DNA from: Candidatus Magasanikbacteria bacterium GW2011_GWC2_37_14
GTDB lineage: Bacteria > Patescibacteriota > Patescibacteriia > Magasanikbacterales > UBA922
Length of the DNA stretch: 64,000 bases
Assembly (NCBI GenBank): GCA_000990355.1
Contig: LBSX01000004.1
Span: forward strand, 1,757 to 65,756
Direction: 5' to 3'
Position numbers and translations under genes: made by a program
Shown here: in pieces, positions 4,976-57,361 of the stretch
How the letters are laid out: the number at the start of each line of letters is the position of its first letter
How positions within the stretch are numbered: position 1 is the first letter of the stretch
The notes under the pieces: generated by a model
What the model was told of the DNA's origin: nothing
The model's input: the letters and a program-made list of their open reading frames with translations, nothing else
Databases searched by the model: none

Positions 4976-7228
4976 ATGGCGTTAAATACCTCACTCGTAC
5001 AATTAAATACTTTTAGTAAGAGTTTGAGTGCCAAATTAAAAAAAATTGGACTTTTTTCAGTACAAAATTTACTATTTTATTTGCCTTTTCGTTATGAAGA
5101 CTATAGTAAAGTTTTAACAATTGCTAATTTAACCCCAGGAGAACAAGTAACCATTAAAGCGCAAATTAGTGCGATTGCGGTAAAACGTGGTTGGAAATAT
5201 AGTAAAATGTTTACTGAAGCCATTGCCGAAGATGAAACTGGAAAAATAAAATTAATGTGGTTTGGCCAACCCTTTATTGCCAAAGTTTTAAAAATGGGTG
5301 ATGTGGCTTATTTTTCGGGAATTGTGAAAGATGGTAAATTGGGTTTGAATATGGTGAACCCAGTTTATGAAAAAGATACCCCCCCTAGCCCCCCCTTATT
5401 AAGGGGGGGGAAACAGAACGACACCCTTGTTAAAGTGGGAAATCGGATACATACTGCTAGAATTGTGCCAATTTATCATACAACCGAAAAATTAACGCAA
5501 AAACAATTACGTTATTTAATTAGCCAAGTTATTGGTTTGGCAACAGAAATCAAAGAATGGCTGCCTGAAGAATTTTTGGAAAGTGCAGATTTAGTACCAT
5601 TAAGTGAAGCGATTCGGGGAATTCATTTTCCCGAAGATGAAACTGATTTAGTACAAGCGCAAAAACGTTTAAAGTTTGGGGAAATTTTTATTTTACAATT
5701 GCGAGCGGAAATGATTCGCCAGTCTTTAAAAAGAGCTAATGCGCCAATTATTAGTTTTCAAGAAAAAGCAGTAAAAGAATTTGTAGCTAAATTGCCATTT
5801 GAACTTACCGCACCACAAAAAGTAGCTAGTTGGGAAATATTAAAAGACTTAAACAAAAACGAACCAATGAATCGTTTGTTGGAAGGGGATGTGGGCAGTG
5901 GTAAAACTGTAGTAGCGGGTTTGGCACTTTACAATACAGTTTTAAATGGTTATCAGGGAGTGATTATGGCACCGACGGAGATTTTGGCAAGGCAACATTT
6001 TGAATCTTTAAAACAAATTTTGGGTGATAATGTTAGTTTGGCGTTATTAACACGTTCTCAATTTACAGTTTACAATTTACAATTTACAAAAAATTTCCAA
6101 TTTTCAAATGACAAATTAAGTAAACAAAAAATTGTTGAGTTAATCAAAAATGGGGAAATTGATGTGGTAGTTGGTACTCATTCATTGCTCTCAGATGATG
6201 TACAATTTAAACATTTGGGTTTGGCAGTGGTAGATGAACAACATCGTTTTGGTGTGGAACAACGTAAAATTTTGCGTGAAAAAGCTGGTGGTGGGCGACT
6301 TAACCCACATTTTTTATCAATGACCGCTACGCCAATTCCGCGTTCGTTCGCACTCCTGCTTTATGGTGATTTGGATTTATCAATTATTAATCAATTACCA
6401 GTTGGTCGCAAACCAATTAAAACCCGGGTAGTAGAACCTTATAATCGGCAGAAAGCTTATGAATTTATTAAAGAACAAGTAAAACTAGGCAGGCAAGTGT
6501 TTGTAATTTGTCCGCTAATTGAATCATCTGTCATCCCGACCGAGTCTCGCGACGAGTGGAGCCTGCCTGCCGGCGAGGCAGGGGATCCCTCGACTTCGCT
6601 TCGCTACGCTCGGGATGACAAAAGTGACGAGAAAAAAACAGTAATGAGTGAATATAAAAAACTTTCCGAAGAAATTTTTCCAGATTTAAAAGTTGCTTAT
6701 TTACATGGAAAATTGCCCGCCCGAGGCGGGTCCGCCTTGGGCGGAAAGCCATCAAAAGAATCCGTCATGGAAGCTTTTAGAAATGGGGAAACAAATATTT
6801 TGGTTTCTACTTCGGTAATTGAAGTAGGAGTAAATATTCCCAATGCGAGTGTAATGATGATTGAAGGAGCCGAAAGATTTGGTTTGGCACAATTACATCA
6901 GTTTCGCGGTCGGGTAGGCCGGGCCGAGCATCAATCATATTGTTTACTATTTTCTAATACAGAAAACGAGAAAGCCTTAGCACGTTTAGAATTTTTTCAA
7001 AATAATATTGATGGTTTTAAGGTAGCAGAATATGATTTGGAAACTAGGGGACCGGGTGAAGTGTATGGTACGGCGCAATCTGGTTTGGGTAATTTTAAAT
7101 TAGCGACTTTAAAAGATATTAAATTAATAAAACTAGCGCGGGATTTGGTAAGAGATATAGATTTTAACCAGTACCCGATTTTTAAAGAAAAAGTAAAAGA
7201 ATGGGAAAAAGGAGTGCATTTGGAGTAA
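4976..7228 (+). CDS. recG: ATP-dependent DNA helicase RecG (carrying in-frame palindromic-element insertions)
   Basis: Wedge domain, GDVGSGKTVVA, DEQHRFGV, helicase C motifs QLHQFRGRVGRA. Extra Pro/Gly-rich segments correspond to the repeat insertions. Confidence 0.9.
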   Translation: MALNTSLVQLNTFSKSLSAKLKKIGLFSVQNLLFYLPFRYEDYSKVLTIANLTPGEQVTIKAQISAIAVKRGWKYSKMFTEAIAEDETGKIKLMWFGQPFIAKVLKMGDVAYFSGIVKDGKLGLNMVNPVYEKDTPPSPPLLRGGKQNDTLVKVGNRIHTARIVPIYHTTEKLTQKQLRYLISQVIGLATEIKEWLPEEFLESADLVPLSEAIRGIHFPEDETDLVQAQKRLKFGEIFILQLRAEMIRQSLKRANAPIISFQEKAVKEFVAKLPFELTAPQKVASWEILKDLNKNEPMNRLLEGDVGSGKTVVAGLALYNTVLNGYQGVIMAPTEILARQHFESLKQILGDNVSLALLTRSQFTVYNLQFTKNFQFSNDKLSKQKIVELIKNGEIDVVVGTHSLLSDDVQFKHLGLAVVDEQHRFGVEQRKILREKAGGGRLNPHFLSMTATPIPRSFALLLYGDLDLSIINQLPVGRKPIKTRVVEPYNRQKAYEFIKEQVKLGRQVFVICPLIESSVIPTESRDEWSLPAGEAGDPSTSLRYARDDKSDEKKTVMSEYKKLSEEIFPDLKVAYLHGKLPARGGSALGGKPSKESVMEAFRNGETNILVSTSVIEVGVNIPNASVMMIEGAERFGLAQLHQFRGRVGRAEHQSYCLLFSNTENEKALARLEFFQNNIDGFKVAEYDLETRGPGEVYGTAQSGLGNFKLATLKDIKLIKLARDLVRDIDFNQYPIFKEKVKEWEKGVHLE

Positions 7229-7233
7229 ATGAT

Positions 7234-7360
7234 TTTCCCCCTTAACAAAGGGGGACCTGCCTACCGGCAGGCAGGTTAAGGGGGTTGTTGGCGAATATCC
7301 CCCCCGCCTGCCATGCCTGGCACTGGCGGGCAGGCCTAGCCCCCCTTTACCAAGGGGGGT
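7234..7360. repeat. array of C-run/loop/G-run mini-hairpins (family 2) plus a CCTGCCTNCCGGCAGGCAGG hairpin
   Basis: tcccccTTAACAAAGggggac is identical to the module inside ugd. ggggttgttggcgaatatccccc is the reverse complement of a module at 56467-56490. Confidence 0.7.
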
Positions 7361-7374
7361 AAATTGACAAGGTC

Positions 7375-7409: not shown

Positions 7410-7750
7410 GTGATTTTCAATTTAGGATCCAACCATAAAGTTGGTGTTGTCGCGAAAGTGACAGGATTGAAATCACTATCTTTCCACTGTGCTGGAGGAG
7501 AAACCCCATGAGGTGTAAGGAAGCGCGAGCCGCAGGTGGTGTCCCCGCGGGTCAAACTCCGGGGAAGAAGCCGAGGAGCAAGTTTTCCTATCGTAGCCTC
7601 CGCGTCCGCGTGGAGACTGTTGGGGTGGCCGACCTCAGTGAGATGTCGGAACACCGCCCGGCGTGCTGTACGACGGATGAAGACCACGTCCTTCTGCAAA
7701 TGGGGTTCAACCCCAGTGAGATGCCGGGTCGCAAAGATCCTTCGTAAAGC
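7410..7750 (+). ncRNA. rnpB: RNase P RNA, bacterial type A-like
   Basis: GC-rich (~57%) island with no credible ORF. GGAGGAgAAA + AACCCCAU (7494-7509) can pair with AUGGGGUU (7700-7707), as in P4. AAACUCC...GGAGCAAG (7554-7582). CAGUGAG (7636-7642) and GGAUGAAGAC (7675-7684) match the E. coli M1 P15-P18 region. P1-like AGGAUC/GAUCCU pairs the two ends. Boundaries are approximate. Confidence 0.65.
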
Positions 7751-7898
7751 CCTCCTTTGTCCGGCCAGTTCTTGGCCGAAGTTCTTTCTTACCTCCCCCC
7801 AAACGAGCTTGGTGGGGCTCTTCAGACCGCCAACTCGCTTCCTCTATAATTTCAGTTCGAGATTACTGGTGAAGCGAGCGGCCTGAAGTTTGTAAATT

Positions 7899-20546: not shown

Positions 20547-20719
20547 ACAATATTGTACAATGTATATGTATTATAGCACCTTTGTTGTTGTCAGAGAATA
20601 GTTAAAATTTTCAATTTACAATTTACAGTTTCCTGTGAATTATCAATTTTGTAATTTACAATATTGAAAATTGGTAATTGTAAATTTATTGAAAATTGAT
20701 TATTGTTAAAATGTAAATT

Positions 20720-21093: not shown

Positions 21094-21276
21094 TTATAGC
21101 ATATTTGGGTTAAATTGTCAATAGGACAGTATGTGCATAGTTTATTAGTGATTTTTTTGAAAATATCTTAATTTTGTATACACTAGTGTATACAAAAATA
21201 GTATTTTAAATTAGCAAAATAATTAGGTAAATAGTAAAAATGTATAGGCTAGTGTATACAAACGTCTGTCATTGCG

Positions 21277-21457
21277 AGGAAGTGCCTGTAAGAGTACGAC
21301 GAAGCAATCCCACTGTTGTCATTTTCGCGAATGTGGAGATCCAGAAATCGTTGGCCATTTGCCTGGATTCCTGCCGGAGTTTATCCTCGTGTAGACGGGG
21401 GCAGGAATGACAATAATGGGATTGCTTCACCCCGCTCGGGCGGGGTTCGCAATGACA
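21277..21457. mobile_element. composite/nested MITE (family 3 element containing a TGTCATTTTCGCG...AATGACA element)
   Basis: Outer termini TGTCATTGCGAGGAAG...CGCAATGACA. Internal cgacgaagcaatccc / gggattgcttcacc inverted copies. Inner element 21317-21412 has its own TGTCAT/ATGACA ends. Confidence 0.65.
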
Positions 21458-21607
21458 GTGGATGTGTATAACCCGCTTGTCTATGTTGCCTTGCTCTGCT
21501 ATACTTAGCCCTATCTTTTAGTTTGAACGCCAAAAGATATTATGAAAATAATCTAATTTAACTGTGGAAAACGCGTGTTTTTGGTTATAATTTTGTTTTC
21601 CGTGTTT

Positions 21608-21690
21608 TCCCCTCCTTAGAAAGGAGGGGCTAGGGGTGGTTGAGTTTATTACGTCAACCCCTCCTGACCTCCCCTTTCCAAGGGGAGGAA
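21608..21690. repeat. family 2 C-run/G-run mini-hairpin array
   Basis: cccctccTTAGAAAGgaggggctagg ... ctcccctTTCCAAGgggaggaaa. Confidence 0.6.
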
Positions 21691-21731
21691 ACCAAAAACT
21701 GTAACACTTTGTTAAATTCCACGTCTTCTAT

Positions 21732-22289: not shown

Positions 22290-22347
22290 TGTCATGCTGA
22301 ATTTATTTCAGCATCCCAGGGGGTCCTGAAACTAGTTCAGGATGACA
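22290..22347. mobile_element. MITE-like element, family 1 (minimal copy C)
   Basis: TGTCATGCTGAATTTATTTCAGCATCCCAGGGGGTCCTGAAACTAGTTCAGGATGACA. Confidence 0.75.
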
Positions 22348-23467: not shown

Positions 23468-23530
23468 GTTATGTTCAGCATGACAATGAATAATTCATTT
23501 GCCTGTGGTACTGTGTGGCTAAGATGGTTT

Positions 23531-23615
23531 TCCTCCCCCTACGAGGGGGAGGCGAGGAGGGGGTTTGGCCAACCGCGAAACCCCATCCCACCCTCCCCTT
23601 GTAGGGGAGGGAAAC
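23531..23615. repeat. family 2 C-run/G-run mini-hairpin array
   Basis: cctcccccTACGAgggggagg ... ccctccccTTGTAggggaggg. Confidence 0.6.
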
Positions 23616-23833
23616 ACCCTCTCGTGCCATACAGTATTGCCGTGAATCTTTAATAGGTTTGCGGTTGGCTGTCCTTCACAAGACGGCCAGGGCACCCCGA
23701 TTTAATCGGGGAGCATAAAGTATAAAGGTCGATCCGTGGCAACACGGAACAGCATGCAAAATTTAAATGCACACTTATTTGGCCAGATTGTGGCGCAAGT
23801 CGCAACGCTGACGAATAAGTTTCTTAATTTATT

Positions 23834-27575: not shown

Positions 27576-27697
27576 TGTCATGCTGAATTTATTTCAGCAT
27601 CTTTTCGTTAAATAATTACACTAAGTAAATATAATCTTAAGAAAGATCCTGAAACCCTTCGGCATGAGCTCAGGTCGAATGCAAGTTCAGGATGACA
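27576..27697. mobile_element. MITE-like element, family 1 (copy E, long variant)
   Basis: TGTCATGCTGAATTTATTTCAGCATC, then AAGTAAATATAATCTTAAGAAAGATCCTGAAAC...CTCAGGTCGAATGCAAGTTCAGGATGACA. The ATG of the downstream ORF is the terminal ATGACA. Confidence 0.75.
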
Positions 27698-29755
27698 AAT
27701 TCTATGAATAAAATTATTGAAAAAATTGCCAAGTATCTCATCATCGCTTCGTTTTTCGTCCCGCTTATTGTTTTGCCAACCAGCTATATTTTTCCCTTCA
27801 TCGTTCCTAAGATTTTATGGTTTCGGAGTATTAGTTTGTTAATTTTTGCTAGTTATTTATTATTGTTATTTAGCAATTGGCAAAAATTTAAAATTAAATT
27901 TAATTTTTTAAATATTGCTGTTGGTTTGTTTTTTTTAAGTTTTATTGTTTCCACTTTTGTGGGAGTGGATTGGTACAAAAGTTTTTGGGATTCTCACGAA
28001 AGAATGCTGGGTTTGTTTACTTTGTTTCATTATTTACTTTATTACTTGGCTGTTAGCCGTCTCATTAATGGTTGGCCAGAATGGAAAGTGATCTTGCGTT
28101 GGTTTTTGGGTGCTGGGTTAATTGTAATGGTAATTGGCGGCATGCAACAAATTAATCCTGAACTTTTAATTAATCGTGGTGCTCATCGTGTTTCGGCCAC
28201 TCTTGGTAATGCGATATATTTTTCTGGTTATGGTTTGTTTTTATTTTTGCTTGGCTTGCTTTTGGCTATAAAAGAAAAAAAAACAACCCTTCGGCTGGGC
28301 TCAGGACAAGCCTTCTGGTTTTGGTATGCTTGTATAGGTAGTTTGTTTGGTTTTTTGGGAATATTTTGGGGTGGTACTCGTGGTACTACTTTGGGGTTGT
28401 TAGTGTCTTTGGCGGTTATATTTTTTGGTTATGTAATTACTACCAAAGAACACAAAAAATTAAGACAAATGTTATTGTTTTTATCGATATTTTTTATAGT
28501 AGTTTTGGGAATATTGTTTGTTTATCGGAAAAATGAAACCATAAAAAGTATTCCTACACTTGGCAGGTTGTTAAATGCTTCGATTACCGAAGGTAGTGGT
28601 CTTACGCGTTATATGGCTTGGGGGATTGCGGTTGAAGGCTTTAAAGAAAAACCAGTGTTTGGTTGGGGGCCAAATAATTATTATTATGCTTTTAATAAAT
28701 ATTATAACCCAGCGTTTTTAGAACATGGTTGGACTGAAACCTGGTTTGACAATGCTCATAGTGTCATTTTTAATACTTTGGCAGTACAAGGATTTACTGG
28801 TTTGGGTGCCTATCTATTAATGTTTATAGCTGGGGCTTGGATGTTAATTAAGGCTTATAGAAATAAAGGAATAGACCAGCATATTTTAGTATTAAGTATG
28901 GCATTTTTAGCTGGCCATTTTGTGCACAATGCTACAGTATTTGAAAATCCTACGTCATATTTATATTTCTTTTTCTTTTTGGCATTTATAAATTCACAAA
29001 CTGCAGATAACAAACAGCAGATAACAGATAACAAAAAAACATCAGAAATTTCTGTTGGTTTGCTAGTGACAATCGGTCTGATTTTATTGCTCATCATTTA
29101 CTCTACGAATATTAATCCTGGACGGGCAAATAATAATACTCTGCAAACTTTAATGGCTTTTTCTACTGGCAAGGATGTTTTTGGCCCTTATGAAATAGCC
29201 CAAAGTACTCCCACACCTCATATAGATGATATTCGTAGTGATTTTGCTCGTACTGCTATTCAAGCTTTGCCACAAATTTATCAAAGTAAACAAACAGATT
29301 TGGCCAACAAATTAGCTGATTTGGTAATTAATGAATTACAAAAGAATCTAGTTTTACACCCAATGGATATTCGTACTAATCTGGCTTTAAGTCAGGTTTA
29401 TGGTTTACGTGCTCAGGCAGAAAACAATGGGCAGTGGCTTCTAAAAAGTGAACAAATTTTAAATCAAGCTTTAAGTTATTCACCAAAAAGACAACAAGTG
29501 CTTTTTGTATTATCTAGTGTAGAATTAGGTTTGGGCAAAGTGCCTGAAAGTTTAAAATTAATCCAGCAAGCCTTGGATAGTGATAATAAAATTGCCGAAG
29601 GTTGGTGGCGCTTGGCAGTTACTTATGCGCAAATTGGCAACAAAAAAATGGCTATAGAAACCATTAATAAAGCAAAAAGTTTAAATATTGAGCCTACCGA
29701 AGAACAACAAGCTTTACTTGATCAGGTTATGGGTGTAAGTAGCACTCAAAAGTAG
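27692..29755 (+). CDS. O-antigen ligase-like (Wzy_C) polytopic membrane protein with C-terminal TPR repeats
   Basis: About 12 TM helices with a large periplasmic loop (WFDNAHSVIFNTLAVQG), then TPR-like C-terminal region. True start may be the second ATG at 27704. Confidence 0.55.
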   Translation: MTNSMNKIIEKIAKYLIIASFFVPLIVLPTSYIFPFIVPKILWFRSISLLIFASYLLLLFSNWQKFKIKFNFLNIAVGLFFLSFIVSTFVGVDWYKSFWDSHERMLGLFTLFHYLLYYLAVSRLINGWPEWKVILRWFLGAGLIVMVIGGMQQINPELLINRGAHRVSATLGNAIYFSGYGLFLFLLGLLLAIKEKKTTLRLGSGQAFWFWYACIGSLFGFLGIFWGGTRGTTLGLLVSLAVIFFGYVITTKEHKKLRQMLLFLSIFFIVVLGILFVYRKNETIKSIPTLGRLLNASITEGSGLTRYMAWGIAVEGFKEKPVFGWGPNNYYYAFNKYYNPAFLEHGWTETWFDNAHSVIFNTLAVQGFTGLGAYLLMFIAGAWMLIKAYRNKGIDQHILVLSMAFLAGHFVHNATVFENPTSYLYFFFFLAFINSQTADNKQQITDNKKTSEISVGLLVTIGLILLLIIYSTNINPGRANNNTLQTLMAFSTGKDVFGPYEIAQSTPTPHIDDIRSDFARTAIQALPQIYQSKQTDLANKLADLVINELQKNLVLHPMDIRTNLALSQVYGLRAQAENNGQWLLKSEQILNQALSYSPKRQQVLFVLSSVELGLGKVPESLKLIQQALDSDNKIAEGWWRLAVTYAQIGNKKMAIETINKAKSLNIEPTEEQQALLDQVMGVSSTQK

Positions 29756-31160
29756 TGGCAAGCATTTTTTCTAGTGTATAATTTGGTTTAGGGCTTTGTG
29801 TAAATTGTTCTTGCAAATTTTGATTAGAAATAATTTTTACTAAATTTTCTGCTAATAATTCCGAAGAAGCAGGGGAGAGCAACCCTGTTTTTTCATGTTC
29901 TATTAATTCGGGAATTCCACCAACGTTTGTGGCGACAATTGGCAAATTAGCGCTTAAAGCTTCCAAAATAGTATAAGGCAAACCTTCTTTTCTGGAAGGT
30001 AAAACAAAAATATCAAAGGCAGTTAAATATTGGCTAGCGTTTTCTATTGAACCAAGTAGGTGAATGTTGTTAATTTGTAATTTGTTTATTTGTTGTTGTA
30101 ATTTTTCATGTTCTGGCCCTTCGCCAATAATGATAAACTTGGCACTGTCATTGCGAGGAGCCTCAAAAGGCGACGAAGCAATCCCGCCGCTTTCATTACG
30201 AGCCTCGCTCGAGGGAGGCGTGGCAATCCCTTGCTTCATTGGGATTGCTTCGTCAGTCAATGCGAATTGACTTCCTCGCAATGACAATAACTTTACCGCC
30301 TCAATCAAAATATCAATTCCTTTAGTTTTATATAAATTAGCAATCGTACCTACCCAAATGTTACCACTGTCATCCCGACCGAGGCTCGCGACGAGTGGAG
30401 CCTGCCTGCCGGCAGAGGCAGGGGATCTCTTGGTGTTGTGTAAGGGATTCCTCGGTTCCGCTCCGCTACACTCGGAATGACAGACAGACGCTAAAAATCG
30501 TCTCGCCACATCTCTTTCCAAAAACACCGTCTTTTCAATTCCCAATGGTATTTTAACTAATTTGTTTTTTGCAATACCTAAATCCATTCCATCCTGATAA
30601 TCTTTATCCGACAAAACAATAATTTTATCTTTTAATTTAGCAGTAATTTTTTCCAAAAATCTATAAATTGTTTTTCTAAAATTGTTCATTGGCTCATTAA
30701 ACACCCAGCCGTGAACCGTGTACACCAACTTGTCATTGCGAGAAGTCCCGAAGGGCGACGAAGCAATCCCAAGTCTAGCAAGAGACCCAACAATTCCTGC
30801 TTTAGAGCTATTTAAATGTACAACATCTGGCTTTAGTGTTTTATATAGTCTTCTAAGCTCAAAAATAGCTAAAATATCATGCCAAGGACAAATTTTTCTT
30901 ACTAAATGTGAAAGTTGTACTATTGTTATGCTATTTGCCCCTCGGCCTGAGCTCGGGACGAAGGTTATCTGTTTTTTGTTATCTGCCAAAATTTTCTCTT
31001 GTAATTCCTTTTTTCTATTCTTTTCTCCCACAGCCACAAAAACCTGCCAGTCAGTAGGTGTATTAATAGCCAAGTCATATACATATCTCTGCGCTCCACC
31101 CCACTCACCTTGGGTAATTACATAGAGAATTTTCTTTTTTTGTTTATCTTGACTTTCCAT
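29727..31160 (-). CDS. GT4-family glycosyltransferase interrupted in-frame by three palindromic elements
   Basis: GT4 C-terminal motif PSRKEGLPYTILEALSANLPIVATNVGGIPELI. Inserted peptides SLARLGIASSPFGTSRNDK, ...ECSGAEPRNPLHNTKRSPASAGRQAPLVASLGRDDS and ...EAIPMKQGIATPPSSEARNESGGIASSPFEAPRNDS. A single ORF is maintained. Confidence 0.6.
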   Translation of the reverse strand: MESQDKQKKKILYVITQGEWGGAQRYVYDLAINTPTDWQVFVAVGEKNRKKELQEKILADNKKQITFVPSSGRGANSITIVQLSHLVRKICPWHDILAIFELRRLYKTLKPDVVHLNSSKAGIVGSLARLGIASSPFGTSRNDKLVYTVHGWVFNEPMNNFRKTIYRFLEKITAKLKDKIIVLSDKDYQDGMDLGIAKNKLVKIPLGIEKTVFLERDVARRFLASVCHSECSGAEPRNPLHNTKRSPASAGRQAPLVASLGRDDSGNIWVGTIANLYKTKGIDILIEAVKLLSLRGSQFALTDEAIPMKQGIATPPSSEARNESGGIASSPFEAPRNDSAKFIIIGEGPEHEKLQQQINKLQINNIHLLGSIENASQYLTAFDIFVLPSRKEGLPYTILEALSANLPIVATNVGGIPELIEHEKTGLLSPASSELLAENLVKIISNQNLQEQFTQSPKPNYTLEKMLATTFECYLHP

Positions 31161-31215: not shown

Positions 31216-31329
31216 TGTCATGCCTAACTAGTCTGTCATGCTGAATTTATTTCAGCATCTCTCTTAATATTAAAAAGATCCTGAAACCTTTCGGCGTGAG
31301 CTCAGGTCGAATGCAAGTTCAGGATGACA
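31216..31329. mobile_element. MITE-like element, family 1 (copy F, long variant with duplicated left terminus)
   Basis: TGTCATGCC...TGTCATGCTGAATTTATTTCAGCATC...GATCCTGAAACCTTTCGGCGTGAGCTCAGGTCGAATGCAAGTTCAGGATGACA. Confidence 0.75.
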
Positions 31330-32296: not shown

Positions 32297-32354
32297 TGTC
32301 ATCCTGAATTTATTTCAGGATCCCTTGGGATTCTGAAACGAGTTCAGAATGACA
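32297..32354. mobile_element. MITE-like element, family 1 (minimal copy G, CCTGAA/CCTGAA variant)
   Basis: TGTCATCCTGAATTTATTTCAGGATCCCTTGGGATTCTGAAACGAGTTCAGAATGACA. Confidence 0.7.
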
Positions 32355-34087: not shown

Positions 34088-35920
34088 ATGAAAATATTAA
34101 TGCCAGTTTTACATTATCATCCAATTATTGGTGGTTTTGAAATTTTTATAAAAAATATTTGTGATCGGCTTAAAGACAAGGCTGAAATTTTTGTGGTAAC
34201 TGGAAAAGTAAATAATCAGCCAGCTTTTGAGCAAAGTGCAGGTTTAAGAATTTATCGCAACGCTTCGTTGTTTACTTTAAAAGATTATTCTTATAGTTCT
34301 TATTGGTATATTTTTACCATGTTACCAATTTTATTTATTAAATCTTGGTCGTTAATCAAAAAAGAAAAAATTGAATTACTCCATGCCCAAGGTTATTTTA
34401 GTGGAATTATTTGTTTATTACTAAAAAAATTAACTGGCGTGCCTTATCTTATTACTATTCAATCAGCCGATTTTACAGTTTATCATTCCGAAGTAAAAGC
34501 AAATTTTATTGTCCGTTGGCAAGATAAACTAGAAAAAAAGGTTTACCGCGAAGCGAGTATTTGCCATGCTGTAAGTAATGATTTAGTAAAACATTTTGCC
34601 AATCAAGGTCGGACCGACGCGATAATGATTCCGAATGGTGTAGAAACCGACATTTTTAAACCAATTATATGGCAAGAAAAAAATAAAATAAGAAATGAAA
34701 TTGGTATCCGAGAAAAATTTGTAATTAGTTGTGTTTCGCGACTGCAAGAGAAAAATGGTACTCATGATTTAATTTCGGCAATTGCTTTGCTAAAAAAAGA
34801 GGGAATTGCTGTAGAATGCTGGATAATTGGTGACGGTCAAGAACGAGCTAGGCTAGAAAAATTAGTTGGTGAATTAAATATTAAAGATAATATAAAATTT
34901 TTGGGTCAAATTTTACACGAAGATGCAGGAAAATTGGTGGCAGCCACCGATTTGTTTGTGCGTCCTTCTTTGGCTGAAGGCTTTGGTATTGTTTATTTGG
35001 AGGCCTTTGCCTGTGGCGTGCCAGCAATTGGCACTCCGGTTGGAGGAATTCCAGACTTTATTGTTGAAGGGGAGACTGGTTTAATTTGTCAAGTTGCCAA
35101 CCCCAAAGATTTAGCAGAAAAAATAAAATTACTAATAAGTAATGAAGAATTAAGAAATAAAATTATTGCCAATAGTTTTAAATTGATAAAAGAAAAATAC
35201 AGTTGGGACAAGATTGCCGAAAAAATTCATAATCTTTATTTAGAAAATAATCAAAAAAATGATCAAATAAAAAAATGGGTCTCTGAATTTAGAGTTAGAA
35301 ATAATTGGGATTCGGCCAAACAAAGAAAAGTTCAAGAAAAAGAAGCAAAATATATTTATAATTTTTTTAAAAAAATAGCTTTACCAAATAAAAATATTTT
35401 AGAAATTGGCAGTGGCAATGGTTATTTAGGTGCTTATTTAATTGAGTTGTTTTCTAAAAATGAAAAAATAAAGTATACTTTTTCTGATCTTATTCCTGAA
35501 TGTGTGGAATTGTGTAAAAAAAATACTGTATTATTAAAGAATGATAATATATTTTACAAAGTATTAGATGTTTATAACCCGGGAAATATTTCTGGTTATA
35601 ATATAATAATTTCCACGGGCTATGCGTCGGCAGCAACTTACAAAGAAGCAGTGCCAATTTTAGCAAAAAATATCCAAAGTGGGGCATATTTAATTTGTGA
35701 TTTTGTTAATCATTTTTCAATATTTGTTTTTTTTCAGCACCCTTACAATAGATTAAAACAATTTATTAAATATCTACTAAAGAAATCAGACAAGAAAAAT
35801 TATCATTTTGGAAAATTAGGTATAAAAAATTATTTTGGTGTTTATGATTTAAAATTAGTAAAGATAAATAGTTTAAGGTTTAGAAGAAATCCGTTTATAG
35901 CAGTTTTTAAAAAAATATGA
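34088..35920 (+). CDS. GT4 glycosyltransferase fused to C-terminal class I SAM-methyltransferase-like domain
   Basis: GT4 motif EGFGIVYLEAFACGVPAIGTPVGGIPDFI (residues ~290-330). C-terminal motif I LEIGSGNGYLG. Confidence 0.65.
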   Translation: MKILMPVLHYHPIIGGFEIFIKNICDRLKDKAEIFVVTGKVNNQPAFEQSAGLRIYRNASLFTLKDYSYSSYWYIFTMLPILFIKSWSLIKKEKIELLHAQGYFSGIICLLLKKLTGVPYLITIQSADFTVYHSEVKANFIVRWQDKLEKKVYREASICHAVSNDLVKHFANQGRTDAIMIPNGVETDIFKPIIWQEKNKIRNEIGIREKFVISCVSRLQEKNGTHDLISAIALLKKEGIAVECWIIGDGQERARLEKLVGELNIKDNIKFLGQILHEDAGKLVAATDLFVRPSLAEGFGIVYLEAFACGVPAIGTPVGGIPDFIVEGETGLICQVANPKDLAEKIKLLISNEELRNKIIANSFKLIKEKYSWDKIAEKIHNLYLENNQKNDQIKKWVSEFRVRNNWDSAKQRKVQEKEAKYIYNFFKKIALPNKNILEIGSGNGYLGAYLIELFSKNEKIKYTFSDLIPECVELCKKNTVLLKNDNIFYKVLDVYNPGNISGYNIIISTGYASAATYKEAVPILAKNIQSGAYLICDFVNHFSIFVFFQHPYNRLKQFIKYLLKKSDKKNYHFGKLGIKNYFGVYDLKLVKINSLRFRRNPFIAVFKKI

Positions 35921-37110
35921 AAATATTAATTACCACAGGAATTTATCCACCAGACATTGGTGGGCCAGCTCGAATGATAGAAAAAATGGCTGAAGAATTA
36001 AGCAATAACAATTTTAAAATTGAAATTTTGACTTTTGGTGACGAGGGATTGGTGGAAAATGGAAAATACAAAGTTTTTAAAGTTTCTAAGAAAAAATCAA
36101 AAATAAGTCAAAAAATAAAGTATGCTTTTTGGCTTTTTCGTTTGGCAAAAAAAAGTGACTTAATTTATACTTTTGATTTGTATACTGCTGGTTTTTTTTC
36201 TTGGTTAATCGGCAAAATTATTTTAAGAAAAAAATTGGTTGTTCGTTTTGCTGGAGATAGCGCTTGGGAAATAGCTAATAACCGTGGTTATACCAGTGAT
36301 GATATTCTTAATTTTCAAAATAAATTTTATGGGATTTACATTGCAGTTATAAAAAAATTTAGAAATTTGATTTTGCGAGGCGCCGATAAAGTTGTTTGTG
36401 TAAGTGAATTTATGGGTGATTTGGCAGAAAAAATTGGAGTAGCAAAAAATAAAATTGAGGTTATATATAATTCTGTGGAGTTTTTAGATTTTTCTAATAA
36501 ATCTAAAAATAATTTAATATCAGAATTAGATTTGCCTACAGAATCAAAAATAATTGTTACTGCCGGACGTTTGGTTCCTTGGAAAGGCGTCGCTGGTTTG
36601 ATAAAATCATTAAAAATTATTAAAAATACTCCAATTGGAAAAAATTTAAAATTATTAGTAATTGGAGATGGTCCGGAATTAGAAAATTTAAAAAAATTAG
36701 CTGGAGAAGAAGGAGTGTTGGAATCGGTTCATTTTACAGGTTTAATTTCCTTAAATAAGGTAATTGAGTATTATAAATTAGCTGATGTTTTTGTTTTAAA
36801 TTCTAATTATGAAGGATTATCGCATACTTTGTTGGAAGTTTTAAGTTTAGGGATACCGGTAGTGGCTAGTAATGTTGGTGGTAATCCCGAACTGGTTGAG
36901 AATAACAAAAATGGTGTTCTGATTTCCTACAATGATCTCTCGGCAATATCCTCGGCAATTGTGAGAATTTTGACCGAAGAAAAATGGAAAAGTGACGAAT
37001 ATAAAAAAGAGTGTGCTAAGATTTTAGAAAAATTTACTTGGAAAAATAATATTGAAAAAACCATTAATCTTTTAAAAAATATTTACCATGAGCAAAGTAC
37101 TTTTAATTAA
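35917..37110 (+). CDS. GT4 glycosyltransferase
   Basis: EGLSHTLLEVLSLGIPVVASNVGGNPELV. Confidence 0.7.
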   Translation: MKILITTGIYPPDIGGPARMIEKMAEELSNNNFKIEILTFGDEGLVENGKYKVFKVSKKKSKISQKIKYAFWLFRLAKKSDLIYTFDLYTAGFFSWLIGKIILRKKLVVRFAGDSAWEIANNRGYTSDDILNFQNKFYGIYIAVIKKFRNLILRGADKVVCVSEFMGDLAEKIGVAKNKIEVIYNSVEFLDFSNKSKNNLISELDLPTESKIIVTAGRLVPWKGVAGLIKSLKIIKNTPIGKNLKLLVIGDGPELENLKKLAGEEGVLESVHFTGLISLNKVIEYYKLADVFVLNSNYEGLSHTLLEVLSLGIPVVASNVGGNPELVENNKNGVLISYNDLSAISSAIVRILTEEKWKSDEYKKECAKILEKFTWKNNIEKTINLLKNIYHEQSTFN

Positions 37111-38535: not shown

Positions 38536-39615
38536 ATGAGAATTTTGAGTTTAAGTTTGGATAGAAATTTATTTGATTCTCAATCCGCAGTTGCCGAAAG
38601 AACATTGTCTTATGGCAGTTTAGTAAATTTATACCATGTCATAGTGCAAGACAAGAAAGATAATGTCTTAAATTTGTCAGAACAAGTTATAGTTTTTGGC
38701 AGTGGGGGATCAAACAAAATCTGGCGTTTTTTTAAGATTTACCATTTAGTTTGTGATTTGTCAAAAAAATTTAAATATGATATTATTACGACTCAAGATC
38801 AGTATTATTTGGGCTTTTTAGCCTTAATTTTAAGTAAAAAATTAAGGTTAGGTCTAGAAGTGCAAGTTCATGGTTGGGATAATTTTTGGGGATTAAGGTA
38901 TTTATTGGCTAGAATTGTCTTGCCTCGAGCTAAAACTATTAGAACTGTAGGTGAAAGATCAAGTAAAAAATTAGTTGGTTTGGGAATTTCAAATCAAAAA
39001 ATAGTAGTTGTGCCAATATTTACAGATTATCTAAATTTTTTAGTTGCTAACAAGCAAAAAAGTAATAGCGAAAAATTTGTTTTTTTAACAGTTGGTCGTT
39101 TGGTAAAAGTAAAAAATATTCAGCAACAAATTTTGTGTTTTGCCCAGTTGTCTAAACAATTTAGGAATATAGAACTACGAATAGTAGGAGACGGGCCAGA
39201 GAGAAATAAATTAGAAAAAATCGTTGCAAATTTAAATTTAAAAGATAAAATTTTATTTACTGGTTGGTTGAATGGTAATGAATTAAATAGGGAATACGAA
39301 AATGCTAATTGTTTTTTACTTACTTCAAAGAATGAGGGTTGGGGATTGGTAATAGTAGAAGCAGCCAATTATTCTTTGCCAATAATAATGACCGATGTTG
39401 GTTGTGCTGGCGAATTTATAAAGGATGGGGAAAATGGTTTGGTAATAGAAATAAACAATAATGAATTATTGCTAAAAAAGATGAAAGAAATTTTAGAAAA
39501 CAAAGATTTAGCCTTTAAATTGGGGCAAGCTGCCCAACATTCGGTAGTAACGATGCCTAGTAAAGAAGAAACTTTAGCTTTATATAAAAAATCTTGGGTC
39601 CGGGCTTTAAAATAA
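38536..39615 (+). CDS. GT4 glycosyltransferase
   Basis: EGWGLVIVEAANYSLPIIMTDVGCAGEFI. Confidence 0.7.
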   Translation: MRILSLSLDRNLFDSQSAVAERTLSYGSLVNLYHVIVQDKKDNVLNLSEQVIVFGSGGSNKIWRFFKIYHLVCDLSKKFKYDIITTQDQYYLGFLALILSKKLRLGLEVQVHGWDNFWGLRYLLARIVLPRAKTIRTVGERSSKKLVGLGISNQKIVVVPIFTDYLNFLVANKQKSNSEKFVFLTVGRLVKVKNIQQQILCFAQLSKQFRNIELRIVGDGPERNKLEKIVANLNLKDKILFTGWLNGNELNREYENANCFLLTSKNEGWGLVIVEAANYSLPIIMTDVGCAGEFIKDGENGLVIEINNNELLLKKMKEILENKDLAFKLGQAAQHSVVTMPSKEETLALYKKSWVRALK

Positions 39616-44163: not shown

Positions 44164-45252
44164 TTGGATATGAATTTACTGTTAATTACTCAGAAAATTG
44201 ATAAAGATGATCCAATTTTAGGTTTTTTTCATCGTTGGGTTGAAGAATTTGCCAAACATTGTAAAAAAATAACGGTGATTTGTTTACAAAAAGGCGAATA
44301 TAACTTACCAGATAATGTAAAAGTGTTAAGTCTTGGTAAACCAGCCCAAGGCTGGCCAGCCTTGGGCTGGGAAAAGTATTTGGGAAAATTGAAAGCGTTG
44401 GTAAATTTTTACAAATACATCTGGCAGGAACGAAAAAATTATGATTCAGTATTTGTGCACATGAATCATTTTTACGTTATTTTAGGTGGTTTGTTGTGGA
44501 AATTGTTGGGAAAAAAAGTTGGCTTGTGGTATGCTCATGGGCATGTACCACCAACGTTAAAATTGGTAGAAAAACTTTCTAATATTATTTTCACCTCTAC
44601 AGTTAGTGGTTTTCGTTTACCAAGTAACAAATTAAAAGTAATTGGCCAAGGCATAGATACTGATTTTTTTATTCCCAATTATAATTTAACAAAACAGAAT
44701 AATGATCTTATTTTAATTAGTGTTGGACGAATTAGCGTAATAAAAAATTATGAAACTATTGTTGAAGCACTTGATGTATTATACAATAAGCAAGGAATAA
44801 CCAAACTTAAGTTGATTTTGGTAGGTGAGGCTAGTGTGGGTGCCGAAGACTATGAAAGAAAAATTAGAGAATTTATTGTAAATAAAAATTTATCAGTCGT
44901 AGTTGATTTTGTTGGTGCTTTGCCCAATTACCAAATAGTTGAATATTTGCAAAAAGCGGATTTATTTTTAAACTCTAGTCTTACTGGTAGTTTGGATAAG
45001 GCGATGGTAGAAGCCATGGCTTGTGCTTTGCCAGTTTTAACCTGTAACGAGTCAATGCAGGAAGTATTAGGTGGTTATCAAGATTTGTTAATGTTCCCCA
45101 AAAAAGACAGTCAAAAATTAGCATCTTTGATAAGTTCTTTTTTAAACAAAAGTTTGGAAGAAAGAATTGAACTTGGTTTGGCGTTGAGACAGCTAGTTGT
45201 AGAAAAACATAATTTAAAAGATTTTATTGTTAAAATTTTATCTCAATACTAA
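44164..45252 (+). CDS. GT4 glycosyltransferase
   Basis: GT4 C-terminal region LTGSLDKAMVEAMACALPVLTCNES. Confidence 0.6.
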   Translation: MDMNLLLITQKIDKDDPILGFFHRWVEEFAKHCKKITVICLQKGEYNLPDNVKVLSLGKPAQGWPALGWEKYLGKLKALVNFYKYIWQERKNYDSVFVHMNHFYVILGGLLWKLLGKKVGLWYAHGHVPPTLKLVEKLSNIIFTSTVSGFRLPSNKLKVIGQGIDTDFFIPNYNLTKQNNDLILISVGRISVIKNYETIVEALDVLYNKQGITKLKLILVGEASVGAEDYERKIREFIVNKNLSVVVDFVGALPNYQIVEYLQKADLFLNSSLTGSLDKAMVEAMACALPVLTCNESMQEVLGGYQDLLMFPKKDSQKLASLISSFLNKSLEERIELGLALRQLVVEKHNLKDFIVKILSQY

Positions 45253-55220: not shown

Positions 55221-56711
55221 ATGAAAATACTTTATATTGGTTCGGGGTTTGTGGGTGCTTGTAGTGCGGCGGTATCGGCCGACAGTGGCCACGAGACTTT
55301 GGTCTACGATATTGATCAAAGAAAAATTGATCTTTTGTCGTCTGGCGATCGTGATACCATTCAATCTTGCCTATACGAAGAAGGGCTAGGGGATTTGCTT
55401 ATTCGTAATCGCGAACGAATTAAATTTACTACCGATTATGCGCTTGTGGAAGAGTTTTTAAATACGGCCGAAGCAGTTTTTATGTGCTTGCCTACGCCAG
55501 AAATTGGTGAAACTGGTGAGAGTAATTTAAGTTATTATTTTTCTGCTGCCGAAAAATTGGCTGAGAGTCTTTTGAAACGCAATAAAAATAAGCAAACTCA
55601 ATACATCGTGATTATCAACAAGAGCACTGTGCCAATTGATATGATAAATAAAACTGCGGAAATTATGGATAAAAGCCAAGTAAAAAATTATGGTGTGGTT
55701 TCTAACCCAGAATTTTTGGTAGAAGGCAAAGCAGTGCAAGATTCACTTCACCCCGATCGCGTGGTAGTAGGTGCTTGGACCGAAAAAGATTTTGCGATTA
55801 TGCGTCAAGTTTATAATCGTTTTTATAATTCGGCAAATGTAAAATATTTGGAAGTAAATCCCAAAGAAGCGGCGGCCGGAAAATTATTGGCCAATTTTAC
55901 TTTGTTTAATAAATTGGCAATTTGTTTTGATGTAATTGGCCGTACTTGTGAAACTTTTAGCGATTTAAAATTTGAAAATTTACGGCAGATTTTAACTAGC
56001 GACCCTCGTATTGGCACTTGGGGTATGTATGATAGTTTGTATGCTGGTGGTAGTTGTTTTATCAAAGATGCGCGTTCATTGTCGCACCAATTACAAACTG
56101 CGGGGCAAAACGCGGTAATGGTCAATGAAACTTATTTGGCCAACAAGCGCCAATTGGAATTGTTTATGAGTCGGGCAGAGAAAGAAGTCCTTCGACCAGC
56201 TCAGGATAAATCTAATTTTTCTTGGACTGGTAAAAAAGTTGCCTTACTTGGTTTGGCTTTTAAACAAGCCACCAATGATATTCGTAATTCTCCGGCAATT
56301 GATATTGTACGGATTTTACAAGAAAAACAAGTAGGTGAGATTCGTTGTTTTGATCCAGCGGCAATGTTTTGGTTTAAAACAATATTTCCCGAAAATGAAC
56401 AGATGAAGTATTGTGAGAGTGAGGTAGATTGTCTTGGTTCGGTCTCCCCCTTAACAAAGGGGGACGAAGGGGGATATTCGCCAACAACCCCCCAACCCCC
56501 CTTTATTAAGGGGGGGAATAGTGACTGTATTGTTGACGTTGTCATCATCGCCACAGACTGGCCACAATTTAGAAATTTAACTACTAGTTTATTAAATTTA
56601 AAAAACAAACCACTTATAATGGACGGCCGGCGCATGCTCTCGGGAGATTACGAAAAATTAAAAGAAAATGGTTTTGTAGTTATTCCAGTTGGGGGACAGG
56701 TAGTGAAGTAA
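55221..56711 (+). CDS. ugd: UDP-glucose 6-dehydrogenase with in-frame mini-hairpin insertion
   Basis: MKILYIGSGFVGACSA (NAD binding), catalytic GGSCFIKD, C-terminal UDP-binding domain. Inserted peptide SPLTKGDEGGYSPTTPQPPFIKGGNS. Confidence 0.8.
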   Translation: MKILYIGSGFVGACSAAVSADSGHETLVYDIDQRKIDLLSSGDRDTIQSCLYEEGLGDLLIRNRERIKFTTDYALVEEFLNTAEAVFMCLPTPEIGETGESNLSYYFSAAEKLAESLLKRNKNKQTQYIVIINKSTVPIDMINKTAEIMDKSQVKNYGVVSNPEFLVEGKAVQDSLHPDRVVVGAWTEKDFAIMRQVYNRFYNSANVKYLEVNPKEAAAGKLLANFTLFNKLAICFDVIGRTCETFSDLKFENLRQILTSDPRIGTWGMYDSLYAGGSCFIKDARSLSHQLQTAGQNAVMVNETYLANKRQLELFMSRAEKEVLRPAQDKSNFSWTGKKVALLGLAFKQATNDIRNSPAIDIVRILQEKQVGEIRCFDPAAMFWFKTIFPENEQMKYCESEVDCLGSVSPLTKGDEGGYSPTTPQPPFIKGGNSDCIVDVVIIATDWPQFRNLTTSLLNLKNKPLIMDGRRMLSGDYEKLKENGFVVIPVGGQVVK

Positions 56712-56790: not shown

Positions 56791-56821
56791 TAGTTTGCGT
56801 GAACCACGTCCCGAGGGACAA

Positions 56822-57139
56822 ATGGCCAAGGCGAAGTTGCCCTTCCTGTTGCGTTTGGACTTGGGGGAACCCATTCCTTTCTACCCCCAGAGTCCGGTGT
56901 GTACCGAGCCCAAGAGCAAGCGGCGCTACCTCTTGCTCTGCACGAGCTTGATGGTTGGGGTGCTCACCTTCATCGAGAACCCCGCCAAGATCGTGCACTC
57001 CGACGGCGGGCTCGCCAAGCTGATGTTGCCCAAGGGCGCCAAGCCCGGCGACAAGCTGATCCCTGTGCGCAGGAGCCACAAGTTCAAGTGCTACTGGGCC
57101 AGGATCGCTGCGCCCACCACCACCACCACCAAGCGCTAG
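56822..57139 (+). CDS. small (105 aa) protein of unknown function encoded in a compositionally foreign GC-rich island
   Basis: Strong GC3 codon periodicity (AAG, GCC, CCC, ATC, GAG) in this frame only. Ends in a Thr5 run. No recognisable family. Confidence 0.45.
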   Translation: MAKAKLPFLLRLDLGEPIPFYPQSPVCTEPKSKRRYLLLCTSLMVGVLTFIENPAKIVHSDGGLAKLMLPKGAKPGDKLIPVRRSHKFKCYWARIAAPTTTTTKR

Positions 57140-57361
57140 GTGCGCGCCATGCTCTTTTCTACTGGACCGCCCTGTCTTGTACGATTATTCAATTGTACAG
57201 CAGGCCAAGACCACATCCCCAGCCTGTTTAGTTTTTAAAAGATTAAAAATTGAGCAGGCCTGCCTGCCGGTAGGCAAGGAGAAATAGGGATGTGGTTTTT
57301 GTTTTAGTTAATTTTTTTGAAGCGATTATTTTTTTGTGATATAATATTGTCATTATTTTTT

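Follow-up and report, generated by a model that had tools for sequence, protein, structure and literature searches.

Palindromic TGTC-tagged repeats in frame at four sites of a GT4 glycosyltransferase gene from a Candidate Phyla Radiation bacterium

Repetitive extragenic palindromes (REPs) of the CGTC-tagged superfamily carry the tag CGTC, replaced by TGTC in many repeats, followed by a stem of 8-9 bp that starts with A-T pairs, a loop of 4-5 nt and a CCA-like tail (Di Nocera et al. 2013, PMC3733652). They occur mostly as inverted dimers, are mainly intergenic and have no dedicated transposase, and their members include Neisseria dRS3 and the Rickettsia elements RPE-4 and RPE-6. Intragenic copies, some of them in frame, were noted especially in DNA-repair genes, and two Xanthomonas species were found to have different REPs at about the same site of recB. 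The superfamily was reported in five phyla, and the Candidate Phyla Radiation (CPR) was not listed among them (PMC3733652). The Rickettsia palindromic elements (RPEs) are described in PMC10969869, after Ogata et al. (2000, 2002), as palindromic repeats that stand in frame in unrelated housekeeping genes of a small AT-rich genome, are translated into additional peptide stretches considered to suit the fold of the host protein, and are also found between genes. Here, we analyse a stretch of 64,000 nucleotides from the uncultured groundwater organism Candidatus Magasanikbacteria bacterium GW2011_GWC2_37_14, called the window below, and in it a gene for a glycosyltransferase of family 4 (GT4) that carries palindromic units in frame at four sites. 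The phenomenon is already known from Rickettsia and, with tagged REPs, from other bacteria; the present gene is an unusually dense CPR example.

The gene is a single frame of 477 codons (29727-31160, minus strand), and its translation has both domains of a GT4 enzyme. In the Pfam search, the N-terminal domain matches PF13439 (Glyco_transf_4, E = 3e-16, residues 20-209) and the C-terminal domain matches PF00534 (Glycos_transf_1, E = 2e-33, residues 336-455), the latter beginning only at profile position 44 because an insert splits this domain. The glutamates E392 and E400 of the EX7E motif are invariant in an alignment of 25 sequences (A1). An earlier reading of the stretch made from its letters only, called the sequence-only reading here, had described a single 477-residue open reading frame (ORF) with the GT4 catalytic motif intact, and this is borne out by the frame, the two Pfam domains and the two glutamates. 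The identical protein is recorded as US42_C0004G0024 of a Candidatus Magasanikbacteria metagenome-assembled genome (MAG; CPR/Patescibacteria) and is encoded on nine contigs. Sequencing errors, which had been named as a possible flaw, were also considered. Since three independent assemblies (two from ENA, one from JGI) match the window without a difference over 2434 nt, an error of sequencing or assembly is unlikely.

When the codons were aligned with those of P0002 (392 aa) and P0003 (440 aa), the closest orthologues and both 64% identical to the query by BLASTP, four insertion sites were seen, designated A to D in the order of the protein. They hold at least five repeat units, and about 117 of the 477 residues are encoded by inserts. 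The insert intervals are GC islands of 55-67% as compared to about 30% in the surrounding DNA (34.6% for the window and 32.5% for the core of the gene), and the share of glycine, alanine, arginine and proline is 38% in the inserts versus 19% in the core. The sequence-only reading had seen three in-frame insertions, at 30146-30286, 30368-30482 and 30731-30770. These coordinates and sequences are correct and all three insertions are real, but the count was too low, as a fourth one is present at 30942-30962. Its proposal that intragenic insertions are tolerated here is supported and was in fact understated.

Site A is marked by a 21-nt module that sits within a GC-rich stretch (30938-30970, residues about 65-79), and the codon alignment shows a 15-codon insert there that is missing from P0002. 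The module TCGGCCTGAGCTCGGGACGAA has three forward-strand copies in the window (five matches when both strands are counted, the palindrome matching in reverse too) versus zero expected, and the other two lie within intergenic TGTC elements (27659-27679 and 31291-31311). At site B there is a singlet of 40 nt (residues about 131-144), previously described as a half element. It is indeed a single arm, 88% identical to 30146-30185, and P0002 has a unit at the same codons in which 36 of 39 nt are identical. The element at site C amounts to 117 nt when the flanking C and G are counted, 115 not being a multiple of three, and encodes residues about 227-265. Its homology to an element in recG holds, the first 47 nt being 98% identical to the recG copy at 6528-6574. 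A 22-nt CCTGCC...GGCAGG palindrome is nested in it (30401-30422); according to a three-way alignment, this palindrome is also in the recG copy and is absent from a copy in ligA of L130, another metagenomic genome. The site C dimer is restricted to the lineage of the window and is absent from P0002 and P0004.

The insert at site D is the largest. Its length of 141 nt, exactly 47 codons, is as first described, but it is a composite of a 96-nt dimer (30191-30286) and an extra 45-nt unit (30146-30190). The dimer consists of a unit with an intact TGTC tag on the coding strand (30241-30286), a 10-nt spacer (30231-30240) and an inverted unit with the degenerate tag TTTC (30191-30230). P0003 has the dimer at the same codon, with about 91% identity over the shared element codons and 86 of 96 positions identical when dimer is compared to dimer. 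The extra singlet shares 38 of 40 nt with a P0003 singlet located at another site (site C) and 35 of 40 with the site B singlet. The RNA fold of the whole 141 nt has an energy of -72.4 kcal/mol (z = -7.9). For the hairpins of the inserts in general, no intrinsic terminators on the coding strand were predicted.

We consider now whether the gene is under selection. Over the core without inserts, the identity rises to 82% (P0002) and 77% (P0003). The ratio of nonsynonymous to synonymous substitution rates (dN/dS) of the core is 0.18 relative to P0002 (dS 0.57) and 0.17 relative to P0003 (dS 0.99), and by three-taxon arithmetic on the core distances, omega is about 0.15 on the branch of the window itself. 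Of the 83 columns with at least 90% conservation, 82 are kept in the protein, the lone difference being L to I, while the median homologue has about three mismatches; this retention is better than in most of 120 homologues. Two of the inserts, those of sites B and D, are common with orthologues that are themselves under purifying selection, and dN/dS within the inserts is about 0.8-2.3, from tiny samples. The reading that we favour, with a probability of roughly 0.8, is that the gene is not decaying: it would be a functional gene decorated by tolerated selfish palindromes, and its product would be a working GT4 glycosyltransferase of a cell-envelope polysaccharide cluster.

The sequence-only reading had offered a young pseudogene as another option, that is, one in which the latest insertions have inactivated the enzyme and the ORF simply has no stop codon so far. 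The dimer of site C, the module of site A and the extra unit of site D are lineage-specific and could be very recent, some 25% of the protein is insert, and several other GT4 paralogues in the same cluster might compensate for a loss. However, the terminal-branch omega is low, the retention of conserved columns is above that of the median homologue, the older inserts of sites B and D coexisted with purifying selection in the orthologues, and orthologues with comparably large inserts in the same loops keep their ORFs too. The sequence is also fixed, being identical across the three assemblies. For the gene as a whole, a pseudogene is unsupported and quite improbable; in view of the core dN/dS, the conserved columns, the EX7E motif and the synteny, this option survives only for the time after the youngest insertions.

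The placement of the inserts was examined with an AlphaFold2 model built from 25 homologues, which has a mean predicted local distance difference test score (pLDDT) of 82 and a predicted template modelling score of 0.82. Its best fold matches in the PDB are BshA, HepE and MshA (probability 1.0), with PimB' and PglA matched as well. The segments with a pLDDT below 50 are residues 66-72, 236-238, 240-257, 298-302 and 304-335, that is, sites A, C and D, which are the only long stretches of this kind in an otherwise confident GT-B model; site B is in a block with a pLDDT of 71. All four sites are helix-to-strand connections in the model (Table 1), which answers positively the earlier question of whether the inserts fall in loops. 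In Rossmann-like domains, ligands are bound by loops that come after the C-terminal ends of the strands, and the helix-to-strand connections are on the opposite face. The model is consistent with translation of the inserts, which make up about 117 of the 477 residues, into disordered loops at the surface that would have no function of their own.

Table 1. Coordinates of the gene, its inserts and related elements in the window, with the place of each insertion site in the predicted secondary structure.
Feature	Position	Strand	Place in model	Basis or remark
GT4 glycosyltransferase gene (GT-B fold, retaining-type)	29727..31160	-		ORF, Pfam, identity to US42_C0004G0024, AlphaFold2 model, synteny
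EX7E motif of the GT4 C-terminal domain, E392...E400, intact	29961..29987	-		alignment A1
Site A, 21-nt palindromic module TCGGCCTGAGCTCGGGACGAA	30942..30962		between helix H52-66 and strand E78-82	three forward-strand copies in window, absent from P0002
Site B, REP-like singlet (half element) GIASSPFGTSRNDK	30731..30770		between helix H119-133 and strand E144-148	shared with P0002
Site C, 115-nt dimer, begins TGTCATCCCGACCGAGG, ends CTCGGAATGACA	30368..30482		between helix H216-231 and strand E268-273	copies in recG and in ligA of L130
Site D, whole element, 141 nt = 47 codons, begins TGTCATTGCGAGGA, ends TCCTCGCAATGACA	30146..30286		between helix H282-298 and strand E340-345	repeat and codon alignment
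Site D, 96-nt REP-like dimer, residues roughly 292-323	30191..30286			same dimer in P0003
Site D, extra 45-nt unit, 40-nt REP-like singlet TGTCATTGCGAGG...GAAGCAATCCC plus 5 nt	30146..30190			15-codon gap in P0003
Peptide stretches of the GT4 protein at insert junctions, LLSLRGSQFALTDEAIPMK and FLASVCHSECSGAEPR				
Sister copy of the site C element, in frame in recG	6529..6620			47 nt 98% identical; recG ORF 750 aa, RecG_wedge, DEAD, Helicase_C
Intergenic TGTCATTGCGAG-family copy, another TGTC-type element nested in spacer	21267..21457			repeat families D17, I14
Intergenic cluster of TGTC-tagged REPs just upstream of the GT4 start, with site A module	31216..31329			sister copy 27576-27697
58-nt CGTC/TGTC-type REP dimer	32297..32354			TGTC, 8-bp stem ATCCTGAA, 5-nt loop, CCC tail, inverted partner; second copy 22290-22347

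The same loops were compared in 120 homologues. The median anchor-to-anchor lengths at sites A to D are 12, 12, 18 and 13 residues, versus 26, 18, 50 and 54 in the query, which is at or near the maximum at three of these sites. Most homologues are short at these loops; about 8-10% of them are expanded at each site, by peptides characteristic of several repeat families. Per residue, the tripeptides R[ND]D and GND, which derive from the tag, are 20-30 times more frequent at sites B-D than in the core. At the DNA level, site D is occupied in all six orthologues, and sites B and C in four of six each. The occupants of site D are a TGTCATTGCGAG-type dimer, a mixed dimer, a dRS3-like CGTCATTCCCGCGCAGGCGGGAATC singlet and two other singlet types, and other REP types are found in the site C loop of P0003, P0007 and P0010 and at site B of P0004 and P0010. 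As judged from these alignments, these loops are recurrent places of landing or retention. The GT4 of the window is the most heavily loaded among the GT4 orthologues seen; denser still is P0121, a protein of 365 aa with at least five singlets of the TGTCATTGCGAG family, all in one frame (xIASSPxxAPRNDx).

These comparisons bear on the option that the GC-rich stretches are ordinary lineage-specific loop expansions and not mobile DNA. The four positions are length-variable within the family, as this option would have it. Yet the same sequences are found in intergenic DNA and in unrelated genes, the DNA is palindromic, the GC content is about twice that of the gene, and one unit type occurs in at least 119 DNA stretches (84 of them listed) from many phyla. 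The insert regions were not found to be conserved native domains either, a possibility that had been raised as a way to overturn the proposal: most homologues have short loops at these places, and others have repeats of different types in them. The option of native loops is effectively refuted.

A separate observation concerns sites A and B. In alignment A1, the orthologues P0003, P0011 and P0016 have peptides such as KLQITNYKLQI or FHWKLEIGNWK in these loops, and therefore these permissive sites may also be used by repeats of a second, AT-rich kind. AT-rich repeats of the TTTACAATTTACAA type are present in the window at 6062-6107 and 20608-20709.

Turning to the repeats themselves, an arm follows the plan TGTC, ATTGC (or ATTCC/ATCCC), GAG, variable stem-loop, CGAA, GCAAT (GGAAT/GGGAT), CCC, and a full element has two arms inverted around a spacer. 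The stems are ATTGC...GCAAT, ATCCC...GGGAT or ATTCC...GGAAT, followed by the CCC tail. All units in the gene end in TGTC/GACA except 30191-30230 (TTTC), and the orthologues have both TGTC and CGTC. The units of the gene are 33-53 nt long. Their basal stem has 5 bp (ATTGC/GCAAT or ATTCC/GGAAT), and beyond an internal loop (GAG/CGAA) there is a distal stem-loop that varies. Among 137 arms, the variable segment is distinct in 121, and its mean folding energy is -5.5 kcal/mol versus -3.0 kcal/mol for shuffled sequences (P = 4e-12), which indicates that the distal stem is maintained.

With the CGTC superfamily (PMC3733652), these units share the tag, the A-T start of the stem and the C-rich tail, the dimers are mostly inverted (83 were found in the fetched loci), and the copies are mainly intergenic. 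The 58-nt intergenic dimers of the window (22290-22347 and 32297-32354) and the site D singlet CGTCATTCCCGCGCAGGCGGGAATC of P0002 fit the definition fully, including the rule of an 8-9 bp stem and a 4-5 nt loop. The units in the GT4 gene differ in their 5-bp basal stem and their length of 33-53 nt, and the long-form unit is present in many more phyla. On the sequence features considered here, the repeats fit a description as REP-like units and dimers belonging to the CGTC/TGTC-tagged superfamily better than one as classical MITEs (miniature transposable elements with inverted repeats), and those of the GT4 gene would be long-form relatives outside the four described families CGTC-1 to CGTC-4.

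The likeness to the RPEs, as outlined in PMC10969869, is that the GT4 inserts are in frame, are judged compatible with the predicted fold of the host protein and also have intergenic copies. The differences from the elements as presented there are the host phylum (CPR/Patescibacteria), the size (units of about 40 nt or dimers of 90-115 nt, versus the RPE-1 type of about 150 bp), the presence of four occupied loops in one gene, and the variety of repeat types that orthologues have in these loops. The repeats would be linked to RPE-4 and RPE-6 through the CGTC-REP architecture that they have in common (PMC3733652).

As to abundance, 12-mers from the ends of the elements are several times more frequent in the window than expected: TGTCATTGCGAG with up to two mismatches is found 10 times in the window versus 2.7 expected, and TGTCATCCCGAC 15 times versus 1.5. 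When one genome per species was scanned, the arm TGTCATTGCGAG-N(10-30)-GAAGCAATCCC was found in at least 119 DNA stretches, of which 84 are listed. The matches listed come from, among others, Chloroflexota, several proteobacterial classes, Cyanobacteria, anammox Planctomycetes, Ignavibacteriota, Bacteroidota, Acidobacteriota, Bacillota, Gemmatimonadota and Patescibacteria. GC in the arm-bearing stretches that were fetched is 39% to 71%; most copies are intergenic and many are dimers, and in the low-GC sequences (fetched loci and window) 39 of 46 copies are outside long ORFs. The repeats are mobile now or were so recently, as indicated by near-identical arms in GT4 and recG, by a further in-frame copy in ligA of L130, by the closely matching singlet at different sites of two orthologues, and by the many intergenic copies in the window. 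Head-to-tail tandem arrays of the TGTCATTGCGAG unit were seen in higher-GC genomes (L079 1769-1899, L098 690-960, and L017 and L024, which are Chloroflexus), with a spacing of 47-48 nt in L079 and L098, which suggests insertion next to an existing unit.

Searches in curated collections gave little. At its gathering thresholds, Rfam gave no match anywhere in the window, and in the region of the gene there was none at E up to 1, so the elements are not a curated RNA family. In NCBIfam, no equivalog was found for the GT4 protein at its cut-off, and neither a match to the insert peptide nor a repeat-element match for the whole GT4 protein or P0121 at E up to 10, the RPE models in that collection being unverified. 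When the insert peptide was compared with large protein sets, a word-index search was empty and an exhaustive phmmer search returned only the protein itself and P0121 at E up to 0.001, a query of 50 residues being too short to gauge breadth. The distal stem specific to site D had no match in a metagenome scan, whose collection is incomplete, as a JGI contig with this stem exists. Finally, no tRNA or tmRNA genes were found.

In the mechanism that we propose, GC-rich palindromic units would have colonised the GT4 gene repeatedly, as singlets or as inverted dimers. The repeats would spread within genomes as non-autonomous DNA, mobilised in trans by a putative hairpin- or single-strand-acting enzyme, and genic copies would survive only if they are in frame, free of stops and at positions that tolerate extra peptide; one of the three frames is excluded because of the TGA within ATGACA. 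The label MITE used by the sequence-only reading would instead imply deletion derivatives of a DDE-type insertion sequence, moved in trans via their terminal inverted repeats. The repeats do have terminal inverted repeats (TGTCAT...ATGACA), are small, lack coding capacity and are present in multiple copies. However, target-site duplications of 4 nt or more were found in none of the 83 dimers of the fetched loci, and matches of 2-3 nt are at the control level. Arms often stand singly or in head-to-tail arrays, every arm forms a stem-loop of its own in which the distal stems covary, and the TGTCATTGCGAG unit is spread across many phyla without a known parent insertion sequence. Transposase domains, the PF01797 type included, were found in none of the 64-kb window's 48 ORFs with 90 aa or more, and no parent insertion sequence sharing the termini is present there. 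The lack of target duplications points away from DDE-type transposition and would favour a hairpin or single-strand mechanism, such as that of a Y1/HUH transposase. Considering also the REP-type architecture of the units, the label is imprecise, and classical MITEs are an unlikely description.

Two further systems of non-autonomous repeats can be compared. REPINs, in the accounts of Bertels and Rainey (2011; PMC3116915, PMC3337134), resemble the site C and D dimers in having two inverted units and a spacer, singlet remnants, no target duplications and populations of related copies. As portrayed there, they are of GTAG type, extragenic and tied to a single-copy REP-associated tyrosine transposase (RAYT), unlike the present repeats, which have TGTC tags and many intragenic copies, with no RAYT in the window. 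The intragenic MITEs ERIC, Correia and BOX (PMC10969869) are likewise small non-autonomous repeats with occasional in-frame fusions to host ORFs; they have DDE-type parents or target duplications and are in frame exceptionally, whereas here no target duplications were found and in-frame copies are numerous.

The very stable transcript hairpins (-72 kcal/mol, z = -7.9 at site D) could also be taken to suggest that the palindromes are removed at the RNA level, being excised or processed before translation like the intervening sequences of rRNA genes, and that the protein is made without them. This is hardly credible. Each intragenic copy examined, in recG, ligA, P0121 and the GT4 gene with its orthologues, is in frame and free of stops, which is expected only if the copies are translated. 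Moreover, there is no match to an intron or ribozyme family, and cleavage of a hairpin would not religate the mRNA.

It is important to point out that several observations weigh against the reading of a functional gene with tolerated palindromes. The GT4 units do not follow the stem and loop rule of the published CGTC families (8-9 bp and 4-5 nt). That the inserts would face away from the catalytic cleft follows from general topology, not from coordinates. Selection may not have had time to act on the three lineage-specific inserts named above, and their tolerance is judged from the older ones. Furthermore, the site D dimers of the window and P0003 differ in only 8 of 93 nt, while the synonymous divergence is 0.55 and the overall divergence of the core is 0.23 (binomial P = 4e-21 and 2e-4), and at site B 3 of 39 nt of the singlet differ, where the synonymous divergence is 0.40. 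Finally, the 3' tag AATGAC stands at the same codon in four orthologues with three types of repeat body.

Simple neutral decoration leaves the low divergence of the shared inserts and the fixed codon of the 3' tag unexplained. The present data do not distinguish between recent parallel insertions of an active subfamily, gene conversion from copy to copy and selection for the hairpin. It is doubtful that the units are held at fixed loop codons across the Magasanikbacteria orthologues by a process at the nucleotide level, and not merely tolerated. Such a process could be selection for the hairpin in mRNA or single-stranded DNA (pausing between beta-alpha units, guiding repair), or alternatively it could be site-specific re-targeting or templated replacement of the REP body at a conserved tag. 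If this were true, a pan-bacterial family of REP-like hairpins would have protein loops as stable genomic niches, turning over with the frame intact.

A host function acquired by exaptation was considered as well. Here, the DNA or mRNA hairpins or the encoded loops would have gained a function, the candidates being translational pausing between beta-alpha units, mRNA processing or stability, and surface interaction, and would be kept at their codons by selection. The divergence of the shared inserts far below the neutral expectation (8/93 and 3/39 nt versus proportions of synonymous differences of 0.55 and 0.40) could be explained in this way, as could the 3' tag at one codon in four orthologues and the strong preference for orientation and frame; nearly all singlets read as ...IASSP...PRND, one frame being dominant. 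In other phyla, no bias of frame or orientation of intragenic copies was seen, the copies being too few. The 10-nt spacer is where the changes of the site D dimer are concentrated, with 5 of 10 spacer positions affected versus 5 of 86 arm positions (counted from the listed positions), which could likewise reflect a function. Only this contrast stands out; the spread of substitutions between stem and loop of the predicted fold is not significant (Fisher P = 0.26). On the other hand, most homologues have no inserts at these loops, the type of occupant varies between close orthologues, and the dN/dS of about 0.8-2.3 in the inserts indicates no constraint on the peptide, though the samples are tiny. 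Conservation of the arms is equally expected from recent parallel insertion, as exemplified by the singlet with 38 of 40 identical nt elsewhere in P0003, or from gene conversion. Exaptation is improbable.

If the gene is indeed a functional one with tolerated palindromes, protein-coding palindromes of the Rickettsia type would be extended to the CPR, and in the open-access literature searched we found no description that links the CPR with such elements. The locus would also constitute a natural experiment on the positions of a GT-B fold that accept 15-50 extra residues, all four being helix-to-strand connections. For annotators of CPR and other MAGs, over-long orthologues with peptides of the RND, SLRG or IASSP type would signify genes decorated by repeats, not new domains or misassemblies. 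The wide phylogenetic spread of a nearly invariant unit, its conservation and its fixed position in orthologues bear, moreover, on how CGTC-type REPs with no known transposase move and persist.

The genomic context of the GT4 gene is a polysaccharide cluster with Wzy_C, epimerase and deacetylase genes. The gene is flanked by a Wzy_C/TPR gene on one side and a UDP-sugar epimerase/decarboxylase-like gene on the other, and the order epimerase/decarboxylase-like gene, GT4, Wzy_C-TPR gene is the same in the window and in five orthologues. It is located at the edge of an envelope-polysaccharide cluster of about 30 kb (31324-62664), which contains at least five more GT4 genes, two B12-radical SAM genes, methyltransferases, a pyruvyl transferase and a flippase, and which also encodes CotH and VTC domain proteins. 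In a scan for GC islands, the GT4 paralogues at 35917-37110 and 38536-39615 showed no comparable GC-rich stretch.

Other genes were found to have inserts as well. The recG gene (4976-7228) has three in-frame GC-rich palindromic inserts, at 5375-5417 (CCCCCC..GGGGGG type), 6529-6620 (site C-type dimer) and 6701-6758 (CCGCCCGAGGCGGG type), which echoes the published remark on REPs in DNA-repair genes. In ligA of L130 (6833-8998), there is an in-frame copy of the site C type of 85 nt together with a second REP-like dimer, with the peptide ...MRHSRESGNLGNQNKIPAYAGMT.... The UDP-glucose dehydrogenase gene (55221-56711) has an 83-nt GC-rich palindromic insert at 56436-56518, of the same family as the intergenic 7236-7363; the C-terminal Pfam match of this protein ends at profile position 56 of 103, just ahead of the insert, which splits the domain. 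Short GC-rich palindromic stretches are also present at 28282-28321, in the Wzy_C/TPR gene, and at 44330-44379, in a glycosyltransferase gene (44164-45252).

Between the genes, the clusters at 23522-23757, 7236-7363 and 21607-21693 contain palindromes of other families, CCCCTT..AAGGGG and CCTGCC..GGCAGG. Two larger islands, at 7484-7845 and 56796-57174, are 360-380 nt long with 60-62% GC in a genome of 35% GC, and are mutually unrelated; neither has an Rfam or Pfam match, and their fold z-scores are weak (-1.4 and -2.2). The second one resembles an ORF of 114 codons (56795-57139) with the codon usage of high-GC DNA and may be foreign DNA.

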